IMG/VR virus record: IMGVR_UViG_3300042332_001215
Span: 1-64,000 of that record
Source: a virus
Reading direction: 5' to 3' (one strand)
Length of the DNA: 64,000 nucleotides
Shown here: positions 2,079-50,433 of the stretch, in pieces
How the letters are laid out: each line of letters starts with the position of its first letter
Numbering within the stretch: position 1 is the stretch's first letter
Notes under the pieces: model-generated
The model's input: the letters and a program-made list of their open reading frames with translations, nothing else
What the model was told of the DNA's origin: nothing
Database searches by the model: none
Program-made: the position numbers and the translations under genes

Positions 2079-2283
2079 AAAAGGTTTCTAGTGATGAAAA
2101 CAATTCTTGTTTTTGTTTTCGTGGTGTTTTACCAGTAATGGTTCTAATATCACCATCAATTGGTTTATACCTGTCTATGTATTTCTTTAAATGATCTTCA
2201 CAACTAAACCAACAAACTTTACTTTCACCTTTATCGCTGTGCTCCAACCTATAGGGGAATCCTTCATATGGAAAATCTGTCAT
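1972..2283 (-). CDS. Hypothetical cyanophage protein
   Basis: FPYRLE..CWF.CE.HL.KY pattern. Confidence 0.6.
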   Translation of the reverse strand: MTDFPYEGFPYRLEHSDKGESKVCWFSCEDHLKKYIDRYKPIDGDIRTITGKTPRKQKQELFSSLETFFEPNESTEIVVAPVGTRTRRKSTQKRPSSRQSSSS

Positions 2284-2645
2284 CGAATAATTTCTACATG
2301 TGTAATTTTACCATCTTTGAAACAAATACTACATCGTGGCCATTCTTCCCATTTTTGATGTGGATTTTGTTCAGGATAGACTTCAATGCAATCAGTAACA
2401 TACACTGGCTTTACTTTACCGTGCTGACCATTTGAAATCCATTGAAATCGTGCCCATGGTGGAAGAGATTCATCATCAACTTCTACAAAGTCTGCAGTAT
2501 ATGATTCATCAATCTCATATAATTCACCTGCAGGAGTAATCCAGTACTCAGCCATTTTATTGTCCAATCCTTTAGTCTGTAAAGTATTGGTATTGAAGTG
2601 TTCATTGATTGGATATGAACAATGAACTCGGTCAAACATTCCCAT
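2280..2645 (-). CDS. Conserved phage hypothetical protein (MGMFD...QTK type)
   Basis: N-terminal MGMFD and LQTKGLD motifs. Confidence 0.65.
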   Translation of the reverse strand: MGMFDRVHCSYPINEHFNTNTLQTKGLDNKMAEYWITPAGELYEIDESYTADFVEVDDESLPPWARFQWISNGQHGKVKPVYVTDCIEVYPEQNPHQKWEEWPRCSICFKDGKITHVEIIR

Positions 2646-3118
2646 TAGAAATCACCTTTGCCTTGGGAGACATCAAAAGTAAATATACCACGCTCTTGCC
2701 ACATTGTCAAGACCCTTTTACGATCATCAAAAACTGCAAAGATTTGATACTGTTCTTCAATAATGTCAGCAATCTCTGCCTTCACAATTGCATCATCACG
2801 ATGGTCTTGATACTTTCTCATATAAAGAGCATTGTAATCATCAGTGAAGATATTGTGCCTTTCAAGCCATTCTACAGTCACATCACGATAATCATCAGAT
2901 CGACCACTCACAAAGAAAACAGGAAAGAAATACTTCAATGAATGAAACATTGCAAGTACTTGCTTTACAGGTTCATCTTGACTGATTCCTTTGTTCCATG
3001 CATCCCAGTTTCTAGGTTTGGTTGCAACAAATTGACGACGATGTTTTACATCACAAAGAGTACCATCAAGGTCAAAAATGATGCACTTGTCTTTAGGAGT
3101 ATTCGTAGAGAAATCCAT
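2645..3118 (-). CDS. Polynucleotide 3'-phosphatase (HAD; PseT/Pnkp C-terminal domain, stand-alone)
   Basis: DLDGT, SGR, LYMR..D.R.D..VK and FDDR motifs; start placed at MDFST (the ORF track extends to 3139). Confidence 0.88.
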   Translation of the reverse strand: MDFSTNTPKDKCIIFDLDGTLCDVKHRRQFVATKPRNWDAWNKGISQDEPVKQVLAMFHSLKYFFPVFFVSGRSDDYRDVTVEWLERHNIFTDDYNALYMRKYQDHRDDAIVKAEIADIIEEQYQIFAVFDDRKRVLTMWQERGIFTFDVSQGKGDF

Positions 3119-3470
3119 GATTAGTGGTGTAATGAACATGAGTAATACCAGCTTCTTTCAATGCAAGCTGACAAATAGGACATGGGCGGGCCATTCGTAG
3201 TTTACCTTGTGGATTGACCCTCGCAACGATCACAGTATCAACTTCTTCACGACACTTAACAAGTGCTGCAATCTCTGCATGTAGATAGATTTTCTCTGCA
3301 AGTCCTACACGCTCAGCAAACTTGGCTTGAAGTGGATGTGATTTGGTTTCAAGATTAGTTGCACTTACAATTACTTTGTTCTTGTTCAGTAGGAGTGCTC
3401 CTACCTGTTTTTTGGAAGGAGAGCTTTTTGCAGTTGCAATTACTTGTTCAAATACCGAGTCAGAAATCAT
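3093..3470 (-). CDS. Zn-dependent cytidine/dCMP-type deaminase
   Basis: HAE and RPCPIC zinc-binding motifs. Confidence 0.88.
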   Translation of the reverse strand: MISDSVFEQVIATAKSSPSKKQVGALLLNKNKVIVSATNLETKSHPLQAKFAERVGLAEKIYLHAEIAALVKCREEVDTVIVARVNPQGKLRMARPCPICQLALKEAGITHVHYTTNHGFLYEYS

Positions 3471-3970
3471 CAGGCCACCTGCAATTTAAGATGCGTACCA
3501 TCATGTGTCATGATGACATCAAAACCTTCATCTTCAGTTGGCATTTGAAATTGGTGATACATGCGAGTGATAACGGATCGTGGAATAAACTTATTCGCTC
3601 TTTGCGAATTGCGAATGATAGCATCTTCCAACTCAATAGGAAGAACCACCACAGTTTTAGTGTATGTGTCTGGAATTTTCTTGAGTTTCTGTTTGCGAGA
3701 CTTCTTGGTTAGATTAGTTTGATCCCAGAGAATTGACTTTTCATGCTGAATGGCATAGTCAAGTTGTTCAAACATCTTAGTAGTTGCTTCAGTAATTACA
3801 TCATCAAATACTTCATTATATGATTTATCTACAGACCTTGCATACTCTTCGATGTAGTCGTCTGTAGATAGAATCACATACTCGTCAAAAGCATCTGTGT
3901 TTTCAGTTCCTCTGCGAATGTAAGTAGATTTACCTGCACAGGGAATACCACACATCATAATCAGTTCCAT
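3470..3970 (-). CDS. P-loop polynucleotide kinase (Pnkp N-terminal / AAA_33-like, stand-alone)
   Basis: Walker A GIPCAGKST, STDD, DQTNLT..SR, RN..R. Confidence 0.85.
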   Translation of the reverse strand: MELIMMCGIPCAGKSTYIRRGTENTDAFDEYVILSTDDYIEEYARSVDKSYNEVFDDVITEATTKMFEQLDYAIQHEKSILWDQTNLTKKSRKQKLKKIPDTYTKTVVVLPIELEDAIIRNSQRANKFIPRSVITRMYHQFQMPTEDEGFDVIMTHDGTHLKLQVA

Positions 3971-5124
3971 GAAATACCTCCGAACATCCAGCGAGAATCG
4001 TTGAGTTTAGTTTGAGAAGTCAGAGACTTCTCGATTGAATCAGTGAGTAGTTGCTTGCAGTCTTTACCTTGTTTCATGCCAAACATAAATGGACGATGAA
4101 TAGGTAAAAGCATTCGGTTTACAAATTCAACGGCAAACTCCTTTTTGTCTGGATACATCATATCACCACCTTTGAAGATCTTGGTGAGGTCTGAGGACAC
4201 CTCATCAACTGCACACCAGAACTTCTGTTGGAAATCTTTGAGACGCTGGGCATCTTCAGGAGTTAGCAGAGGAATCATATCATCTACAGAATCATTGAGA
4301 ATAACTTGAATGATATTCTTTTCTGAGTTGATTTGTTCCTTTGAACGATGGCGTAGAATGTATTCATCTGCTTTAATCTTAACCATGTGACCGTTATCAA
4401 AACGAATCACTACACCTTCACCATCATCCCATTTACGAATGTGGTCTACAATCTTTTCAATATCAGTTTCATCACCAGCAATAGCTTTTACAACAGGAAT
4501 ATCATAATTTTTTCCTGTTTCAACCATCTGAGAATATGGAATGTAATTTCCACTACGCATATCTCGCACAGCAGTTAGAATTAGATTATCTTCTGAATAA
4601 TCAACTACAATACGATTCTTTCGTGAACACCATTCAAATATAGGTGTTAACCCACATGAAAAACTTGATTTAATAAACTTAGCATATTCTGGTTTATCTG
4701 CAACAAAATACTCTGCATTCATTGCAACATCAGTAATGCCAGCTTTTGTGCCAAGACGAAAACCTTCTGGTGTTGGAATGGGACGAATCATCGAACCATC
4801 TAGCTTTTCTAGAACTACATGAGGTTGAGTTAAATCAATCTTATCTAAATTAGTTTCTTCTCGCTCACCAACATTGAAGAACTTATGGTATGGGCGAGAA
4901 ATTAGATTACCAGTAGCAGTATCAAAGATCATGCCACGACATTCACGACGAATCTTCATATTATAATGACTACGCTCACGAACAAGTGAGAAAGTCTCTT
5001 CAAATGCTACCATGTAATTGATAACAGTGTACCAATCTTTTTGCATCACTTTGAATTCTTGCCAATCCTCAATGTGTGGAATGACATCATCAATGTGATC
5101 AATTTCTGGAAAGTCGTAGTTCAC
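3961..5124 (-). CDS. rnlA: RNA ligase 1 (T4 RnlA family)
   Basis: ECRG, HKFFN, EKLDGS, EGVV and KIK motifs. Confidence 0.92.
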   Translation of the reverse strand: MNYDFPEIDHIDDVIPHIEDWQEFKVMQKDWYTVINYMVAFEETFSLVRERSHYNMKIRRECRGMIFDTATGNLISRPYHKFFNVGEREETNLDKIDLTQPHVVLEKLDGSMIRPIPTPEGFRLGTKAGITDVAMNAEYFVADKPEYAKFIKSSFSCGLTPIFEWCSRKNRIVVDYSEDNLILTAVRDMRSGNYIPYSQMVETGKNYDIPVVKAIAGDETDIEKIVDHIRKWDDGEGVVIRFDNGHMVKIKADEYILRHRSKEQINSEKNIIQVILNDSVDDMIPLLTPEDAQRLKDFQQKFWCAVDEVSSDLTKIFKGGDMMYPDKKEFAVEFVNRMLLPIHRPFMFGMKQGKDCKQLLTDSIEKSLTSQTKLNDSRWMFGGISWN

Positions 5125-5303
5125 TGGTAATCTTCCTGTTCAAAGGTGAAGTATTCGTAGATTTGAGACATCACAGCTTCATCAATGTGCTGCATAATGG
5201 CACTTGGCAAAGGATTCTCTACATGTTTGTGTGCAAGATGCCAACCACGACGCACACCTTCTTCAATTGCCATTTCTAGTATAACACGGGTTTTAGGTTT
5301 CAT
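5121..5303 (-). CDS. Hypothetical protein
   Basis: IEEGVRRGW..AHKHVENP pattern; overlaps the rnlA start. Confidence 0.7.
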   Translation of the reverse strand: MKPKTRVILEMAIEEGVRRGWHLAHKHVENPLPSAIMQHIDEAVMSQIYEYFTFEQEDYQ

Positions 5304-50191: not shown

Positions 50192-50244
50192 TTCTGTATT
50201 TGAAGAAACGATATTTTATTTATTTCTTATTTTTGCCTTGATAA

Positions 50245-50318
50245 TACCCGAGGTGGGATTTGAACCCACGACTGCTCGATTTTAAGTCGAGAACCTCATT
50301 CCGCTGGGTCACTCGGGC
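50245..50318 (-). tRNA. tRNA-Leu (UAA), short variable loop, no encoded CCA
   Basis: GCCCGAG/CTCGGGT acceptor, CTCGA-CTTAAAA-TCGAG anticodon arm, GTGGG-TTCAAAT-CCCAC T arm. Confidence 0.9.
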
Positions 50319-50330
50319 ATTTATGCGACA

Positions 50331-50359
50331 ATCATAACACATGGTCAGAGGACTGTCAA
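50331..50359 (-). promoter_or_regulatory. sigma70 promoter for tRNA-Leu
   Basis: TTGACA-N17-TATGAT. Confidence 0.8.
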
Positions 50360-50360
50360 G

Positions 50361-50433
50361 TGCTGGTTGAGGGGATCGAACCCACCTATCTTGTCTTATG
50401 AGGACAGTGCTTTCACCAGAGAGCTAAACCAGC
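50361..50433 (-). tRNA. tRNA with CAU anticodon (Ile2/lysidine or elongator Met)
   Basis: GCTGGTT/AACCAGC acceptor, CTCATAA loop, GGTTCGATCC T arm; G1-C72 is paired, so not an initiator. Confidence 0.85.

Follow-up and report, generated by a model that had tools for sequence, protein, structure and literature searches.

In phage T4, the RNA ligase RnlA and PseT repair tRNAs that have been cut by PrrC. The ATP-grasp RNA ligases of large phages are accompanied by polynucleotide kinases and HAD phosphatases, which occur both fused and as stand-alone proteins (Iyer et al. 2021; PMC7824862). Here, we describe a related locus in the first 64 kb (the window) of the 86-kb IMG/VR record IMGVR_UViG_3300042332_001215, a record with an estimated completeness of ~45%. 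The window has a G+C content of ~36% and huge tail-fibre and baseplate genes, and its relatives are Kyanoviridae cyanomyoviruses; its source is an uncultured T4-like cyanophage (cyanomyovirus). On the minus strand (5124..2645) four open reading frames (ORFs) follow each other in the order Rnl1-type RNA ligase, kinase, zinc deaminase and HAD phosphatase, with overlaps of 10, 1 and 47 nt between successive genes. In our view, these genes are likely to represent two independent things that are adjacent in one cyanophage lineage, a heal-and-seal set for RNA and, as its neighbour, a deaminase of the nucleotide pool.

The separation of the two Pnkp activities into two proteins is common, not unusual. 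Starting from the ligase, we found 67 IMG/VR loci with the Rnl1 protein and inspected 5 kb on either flank. A stand-alone kinase was present within this distance in 46 of the 67 loci, and a kinase plus a stand-alone HAD in 31. Outside the clade in which the deaminase is linked to the repair genes (the linked clade), complete Rnl1-kinase-HAD cassettes were present at 22 IMG/VR loci, and a deaminase was found within 5 kb in 0 of these 22. In most of them, the kinase and HAD genes overlap or are separated by at most 226 nt, and in five the HAD gene is located upstream of Rnl1 (order HAD-Rnl1-kinase). The same kinase family directly follows Rnl1 in Synechococcus phage B23, Roseobacter phage DSS3P8 and Caulobacter phage Cr30, and DSS3P8 has a HAD_PNKP gene 2 kb upstream of Rnl1. 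A cassette of Rnl1, a stand-alone kinase and a stand-alone HAD is, in other words, common among the genomes of cyanophage-like and alphaproteobacterial phages, and defences that cleave tRNA are, by implication, common in the hosts of these phages.

The position of the deaminase is different in this respect. Among the 67 ligase loci, it lies between kinase and HAD in only nine (L043-L051), all of which have an Rnl1 at least 76% identical to that of the window. A second survey, starting from the deaminase, covered 29 IMG/VR loci and nine loci of cultured phages, with flanks of 4-5 kb; the distant part of the deaminase family was sampled through the cultured-phage records only. The four-gene order was seen in 10 of the 29 IMG/VR loci, which belong to the same contig group as the linked loci of the ligase survey. 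In the other 19, made up of cyanophage copies with 57-79% identity and of relatives with 34-45% identity, Rnl1, kinase and HAD were absent within 5 kb, and RNA-repair genes were also absent within the flanks in nine of the nine cultured-phage loci (Sf-CH8, S-T4, ACG-2014f, BF, phiKZ, Tomas, JP4, XaC1 and 4L372XY). The unlinked deaminases have a DEAD/ResIII helicase, 2OG-Fe(II) oxygenases, denV and NUMOD3 homing-endonuclease-like genes as neighbours.

Repair cassette and deaminase assort independently among genomes. The cassette is present in genomes G005 (98% complete) and G006 (88%), in which no member of the deaminase superfamily was found even by a family-profile search. The reverse is true for Sf-CH8, S-T4 and ACG-2014f, which have the deaminase and in which no Rnl1 was found by a search that recovered Rnl1 in four positive controls. 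In phage B23 deaminase and repair genes are both present, 22 kb apart, and in the complete genome G008 they are 6.6 kb apart; in Streptomyces phages, more than 20 kb lie between the deaminase and the repair genes.

The deaminase between kinase and HAD is confined to one genus-level clade, consistent with a single insertion. Ten independent IMG/VR contigs besides the window show the identical four-gene order, which indicates that the arrangement is real and inherited and not a product of chance ORFs. In the deaminase tree, the copy of the window and eight linked copies form one group, and therefore, one linkage event suffices. The deaminase of locus L018 groups (99/98) with unlinked deaminases. 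Closer inspection of this locus (L018:5001-6236, in IMGVR_UViG_3300025646_000024) revealed a mosaic allele, the first 45 nt of which are similar to the linked clade and the rest to the unlinked L024 type, and an 860-nt insert between deaminase and HAD that holds a 297-aa ORF without Pfam match. A piece of ~105 nt of this insert has two further matches, both in L022, and hence, the insert looks like a small repeated element. The mosaic allele and the insert together argue that the linkage is not protected from recombination. NUMOD3-containing (homing-endonuclease-like) ORFs are located directly beside unlinked deaminases at L022:3412-4308 and L025:5802-6611, and this suggests that endonuclease-driven gene conversion helps to move or mosaicise the deaminase gene.

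We also considered the opposite direction, insertion of the repair genes around a resident deaminase. This was rejected: the contiguous Rnl1-kinase-HAD arrangement is the widespread state, and therefore, the deaminase is the newcomer. A putative empty ancestral site of the deaminase was sought beside the helicase in the complete relative G001; the helicase is located ~4.8 kb downstream of the block there, but without 2OG-Fe(II) oxygenase neighbours, and this search therefore did not yield the original position of the deaminase. A literature search for a deaminase, an RNA ligase and a polynucleotide kinase in one phage operon gave nothing relevant. The deaminase gene probably became lodged between kinase and phosphatase by a rearrangement in the hypervariable early-gene region and was then inherited at this position.

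Judged by their domain matches and catalytic motifs, Rnl1, kinase and HAD constitute a normal T4-type heal-and-seal set in split form. The initial annotation had described the four overlapping genes at 5124..2645 as Rnl1, kinase, HAE/PCxxC deaminase and HAD, and the first, second and fourth as a T4-type set with Pnkp split into two proteins; both descriptions hold, the former in domains as well as coordinates. Rnl1 is matched by PF09511 (E = 2.3e-30; 106.6 bits, with a cut-off of 28.3), by phrog_562 (E = 9e-74) and by TIGR02308 (E = 4.8e-39; 134.5 bits, under the equivalog cut-off of 242), and by phmmer to the T4 Rnl1 structure 2c5u (E = 2.9e-18). Its KLDGS (K107) aligns with KEDGS (K99) of T4, that is, the nucleotidyltransferase motif I lysine is present, and its EGVV and VKIK align with EGYV and FKIK of T4 (motifs IV and V). 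PF20819, the tRNA-specific C-terminal domain of the T4 Rnl1 family, is weakly matched (E = 1.5e-4; 22.5 bits, with a cut-off of 27).

The kinase is a probable 5'-OH polynucleotide kinase, as suggested by its matches to AAA_33 (E = 3.9e-18), to the N-terminal half only of phrog_505 "polynucleotide kinase" (E = 9e-17) and to phrog_8238, a kinase-ligase fusion profile (E = 1.4e-8). In the alignment with T4 Pnk, the P-loop GKST, the Asp of STDD (T4 D35) and RNSQR (T4 R122/R126) are kept. K15, S16, D35, R38 and R126 are the catalytic residues of the T4 Pnk kinase; equivalents of K15, S16, D35 and R126 are present, and R38 is replaced by Ile. Its PDB matches (PSTK, 1.3e-6; Pnkp1, 6e-4; T4 Pnk, 2.8e-3) place the enzyme nearer to the archaeal L-seryl-tRNA(Sec) kinase PSTK and to KTI12 than to T4 Pnk, and it may prefer other substrates than T4 Pnk does.

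The phosphatase is matched by PF25109 HAD_PNKP (E = 2.7e-28; 99.3 bits, with a cut-off of 27.6), phrog_415 (E = 3.6e-39) and the C-terminal half of phrog_505 (E = 8.5e-34); in the PDB, it matches the phosphatase domains of Pnkp1 (1.8e-12) and T4 Pnkp (3.4e-6), with which its DLDGT (motif I) and FDDR (acidic motif) align. Its ORF has a second in-frame ATG at 3118. The one-polypeptide layout of PseT is not found here: kinase (3970..3470) and HAD (3139..2645) are separate with the deaminase ORF between them, and each matches its own half of phrog_505 only. In our model, the kinase would phosphorylate 5'-OH ends, the HAD phosphatase would strip 3'-phosphates and Rnl1 would reseal the break. By analogy with T4 RnlA and PseT acting against PrrC, the repaired RNAs would presumably be tRNAs cleaved by an anticodon nuclease of the host.

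The deaminase is most likely a pyrimidine nucleotide-pool enzyme that stands outside the repair pathway. It is matched by PF00383 (E = 5e-10) and by phrog_174 "dCMP deaminase" (E = 7e-19) and has the motifs HAE at residues 64-66 and PCPIC at 96-100. In an alignment of 102 family members, H64, E66, P96, C97 and C100 are invariant and N39, K43, H45, P46, Q48 and R84 are nearly so, giving the motif N-x3-KTHPxQ; K43, H45 and R84 are candidate phosphate binders. The linked copies retain all family-invariant residues and are 79% identical to the unlinked copy of Sf-CH8. Family members have 110-140 aa and occur in cyanophages, in Rak2-like and phiKZ-like jumbo phages and in Streptomyces phages; this phage-borne family is very large, with 480 clusters when grouped at 90% identity and 1563 at 50% (E ≤ 1e-3). 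Their automatic names disagree (TadA, cytidine deaminase, deoxycytidylate deaminase), many of the TadA names coming from JGI pipelines, and one substrate assignment for the N-x3-KTHPxQ family would correct thousands of inconsistent annotations.

The family profile ranks dCMP deaminases first among PDB entries (S-TIM5 4p9c, 5.6e-12; S. mutans, 1.2e-9; human and T4, ~1e-7), ahead of TadA (2.9e-6) and cytidine deaminase (CDA; 7e-5), and hhalign of the family to T4 Cd gave 97.5%, over ~100 columns only. In NCBIfam, the 102 members have weak matches to dCTP deaminase (34 members), ComEB (19), CDA (14) and TadA (3). The best member E-values, 1.9e-7 for ComEB (TIGR02571) and 1.7e-8 for the anti-phage dCTP deaminase, are weak for curated equivalogs. 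The protein of the window itself had no match to a dCMP deaminase model in NCBIfam and matched cytidine-deaminase models only, namely TIGR01354 (E = 4.6e-6; 26.9 bits, with a cut-off of 113.65) and two weaker ones. The AlphaFold2 (AF2) model (mean-confidence score pLDDT of 97) predicts a C-terminal beta hairpin (strands 111-116 and 119-124, with two residues between them) and neither a helix 4 nor C-terminal helices of the TadA type; the chain ends 25 residues past PCxxC. Structural Z scores were 11.5-12.8 for tetrameric CDAs (100-108 residues aligned, spanning residues 1-125), 10-11 for dCMP deaminases and 9.6-10.7 for TadA. We rejected membership in TadA, in which C-terminal helices after the PCxxC helix hold the anticodon loop: the AF2 model has two beta strands in place of such helices, its Z scores with TadA are lower than with CDAs and dCMP deaminases, and weak TadA matches were obtained for 3 of 102 members. 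In sum, the family is a compact, distinct deaminase branch that is claimed by no curated model.

These data leave some room for a salvage enzyme of the CDA type that acts on the nucleosides cytidine or deoxycytidine, not on dCMP or dCTP, and that is likewise unrelated to RNA repair. Tetrameric CDAs are indeed the best structural matches and share the C-terminal hairpin, and the NCBIfam matches of the window protein are all to cytidine-deaminase models; the lead in Z over dCMP deaminases is, however, only 1-2 units, and sequence profiles favour dCMP/dCTP deaminases. Furthermore, the zinc ligand is His (HAE) and not Cys as in tetrameric CDAs, and the near-invariant K43, H45 and R84 could bind a phosphate. 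We therefore regard a nucleoside deaminase as unlikely.

Taking the deaminase as an enzyme of the nucleotide pool, its most likely substrate is dCMP, dCTP or deoxycytidine, in other words a cytosine nucleotide or its nucleoside, and its activity would provide dUMP for the ThyX of the phage. A gene for ThyX (PF02511, E = 3.7e-46) was found at G000:C1:69945-70523, on the same contig, outside the window, at a distance of ~66 kb from the deaminase; G001 encodes ThyX as well, as do five of the five other genomes tested. In G001, a complete relative from the linked clade, the deaminase is the only PF00383 gene. The supply of dUMP may help a genome with 36% G+C to replicate from the nucleotide pool of a host whose G+C content is presumably higher. 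In the Rak2-like jumbo phages BF (L120, Serratia phage BF 69221-70407) and Escherichia phage JP4 (L123), a family member is found at most ~2 kb from anaerobic ribonucleotide reductase genes, and in Serratia phage BF, the deaminase adjoins thymidylate kinase.

Several observations weigh against this interpretation of the locus. The arrangement persists throughout a clade in which Rnl1 has diverged to 76% identity, conservation within the block is highest for the deaminase (90-96%), and successive genes are close-packed with respect to translation. G005 likewise encodes ThyX but is without deaminase, and therefore, the deaminase would be accessory. No curated equivalog was matched above its cut-off, and the C-terminal hairpin predicted by AF2 is CDA-like. 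The G-Y/W-N-G motif of the aligned dCMP deaminases (GWNG in S-TIM5, GYNG in S. mutans), which follows strand 2 and forms their allosteric dCTP/dTTP site, is reduced to the conserved Asn N39. Finally, some phage "dCMP deaminases" act on single-stranded DNA (ssDNA) and on nucleotides of 5-methylcytosine and 5-hydroxymethylcytosine (5mC/5hmC) (bioRxiv 10.1101/2024.12.05.627091). With phage members of the superfamily active on ssDNA, an activity on polynucleotides is possible on sequence alone.

The initial annotation had seen in the block a possible heal-seal-and-edit counter-defence, in which the deaminase alters tRNA or nucleotide substrates linked to anti-phage RNases. In such a scheme, the deaminase would work within the repair module and convert C to U or A to I in tRNA, either evading the nuclease or restoring decoding after repair. 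The comparative evidence makes this very unlikely. The deaminase is packed between the healing genes by overlaps of 1 and 47 nt, but the overlapping string reaches past both ends (p68>p60>Rnl1>kinase>deaminase>HAD>p121>p103), with overlaps of 1-47 nt throughout, and therefore, overlap is no marker of the four genes as a unit. The deaminase is indeed an insertion relative to the Rnl1-kinase-HAD order of sister lineages; the postulated coupling is not supported. The order is kept in 10 contigs despite the divergence of Rnl1, but a single event in one clade accounts for this linkage, sister genomes carry the cassette without deaminase, and in L018 the junction of deaminase and HAD is broken by the insert and a foreign allele. 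The deaminase is found in none of the 22 other complete cassettes and the cassette at none of the 28 other deaminase loci, within the flanks inspected; the neighbourhood analysis that the initial annotation had called for revealed no enrichment of rnlA/pnk linkage outside one narrow clade. Many members were automatically named TadA by JGI pipelines, a name at odds with the missing C-terminal helices and the scarcity of TadA matches. Some phage deaminases of the superfamily do act on polynucleotides (bioRxiv 10.1101/2024.12.05.627091); the linked copies, for their part, keep the invariant residues of the family and their close similarity to the unlinked Sf-CH8 copy.

It is imaginable that the deaminase was recruited into tRNA repair in this clade and edits a tRNA, either a cleaved and resealed one or another of phage or host, at a cytosine (or adenine) within its anticodon loop or close by, but such a variant is no more probable. 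Just as little credence is due to its supposed effect, namely, that the host anticodon nuclease would no longer recognise the edited tRNA and that three activities would heal, seal and edit as one counter-defence. Editing of tRNA by the deaminase, if true, would be a new type of counter-defence, and the comparative evidence points against it. The other option named by the initial annotation, a nucleotide-pool deaminase of the dCMP type, is the better-supported reading, with dCMP deaminases nearest to the family profile.

Least probable of all is a deaminase acting on modified cytosine nucleotides or on ssDNA (5mC/5hmC-selective or mutator-like) in DNA modification or host conflict: MafB19-deam is also matched by 65 of the 102 family members, and the same Pfam pair marks the phage 5mC/5hmC and ssDNA deaminases, but those enzymes were chosen for their location at most 3 kb from a ThyA-type dCMP methylase or hydroxymethylase (bioRxiv 10.1101/2024.12.05.627091), whereas the only thymidylate synthase found here is the distant ThyX, and the surroundings of the deaminase showed no gene for cytosine modification.

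The features of the region are compiled in Table 1. Of the two small ORFs that flank the block, p121 is kept downstream of HAD in the linked clade (77-79% identity). Homologues of p60 precede Rnl1 in the linked clade and follow HAD in the sister lineage; they are also found ~1 kb upstream of the unlinked deaminases in L024/L025. Both ORFs accompany the region of the Rnl1 cassette in the linked clade and the sister lineage, in differing orders. A scan of the region for promoters and terminators gave counts near the shuffled expectation (21 promoter-like sites, with 18.7 expected), and therefore, operon boundaries cannot be claimed. The best sigma-70-like match of the region (window 2710..2682, minus strand; TTGACA-17-TATATT with an upstream TG, 11/12) is located inside the 3' end of HAD just upstream of p121 and may be an internal early promoter. 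Two tRNA genes, tRNA-Leu(taa) and tRNA-Met(cat), are found between large structural genes at window 50244-50433 (minus strand). A megablast search of the locus against cultured phages gave no match.

Table 1. Genes of the repair and deaminase block and its immediate neighbours (window coordinates)
Feature	Coordinates	Strand	Families and remarks
ORF p60	5121..5303	-	small, without known family; 4-nt overlap with the Rnl1 start
Rnl1-type ATP-dependent RNA ligase, 387 aa	3961..5124	-	PF09511, phrog_562, TIGR02308; sealing enzyme
Stand-alone P-loop kinase, 166 aa	3470..3970	-	AAA_33, phrog_505; probable 5'-OH polynucleotide kinase (healing)
Compact zinc deaminase, 125 aa	3093..3470	-	cytidine/dCMP deaminase superfamily; PF00383, phrog_174
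Stand-alone Pnkp-type HAD 3'-phosphatase, 164 aa	2645..3139	-	PF25109 HAD_PNKP (healing)
ORF p121	2280..2645	-	phrog_1615 (function unassigned); 1-nt overlap with the HAD stop

Among the nearest counterparts of the block are the other cyanophage-like cassettes, in which the three protein families recur in unchanged order, often with overlapping genes and with an Rnl1 34-70% identical to that of the window (B23, DSS3P8 and Cr30 included). Unlike the window, neither these cassettes nor the gene pairs of B23, DSS3P8 and Cr30 have a deaminase between kinase and HAD.

With regard to the deaminase itself, the solved dCMP deaminases (S-TIM5 4p9c, S. mutans 2hvv, human 2w4l and T4 1vq2) share the HAE/PCxxC zinc site and the core fold and give the best profile matches (5.6e-12 to 8e-8), whereas the family of the window has its own N-x3-KTHPxQ insert, a single Asn for G-Y/W-N-G and a predicted hairpin without helix 4. 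The tetrameric CDAs (B. subtilis 1jtk, human 1mq0 and plant 5jfy) are similar in size, have the same topology of the C-terminal hairpin and give the best structural Z, but differ in their Cys zinc ligand and in a much weaker profile match (7e-5).

The T4 system resembles the block in its Rnl1-type ligase (RnlA, gp63) with the same lysine motif, its P-loop 5'-kinase and its DxDGT HAD 3'-phosphatase. PseT is one protein of 301 aa, whereas two proteins are encoded in the window, and the kinase of the window is nearer to kinases of the PSTK/KTI12 type than to T4 Pnk. The likeness extends to a cytosine deaminase gene, cd, located downstream of pseT on the same strand: T4 has rnlA-alc-pseT.3/.2/.1-pseT-cd.5..cd.1-cd on one strand within 5.3 kb. 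In T4, however, cd lies ~1.3 kb downstream of pseT and not between kinase and HAD, and Cd is an allosteric enzyme of 193 aa, compared to 125 aa in the compact family. T4 cd encodes a nucleotide-pool enzyme (dCMP deaminase). The short distance between cd and the repair genes is a matter of early-region layout and not of a shared pathway, and it provides a precedent for the non-functional proximity of a deaminase and an RNA-repair set.

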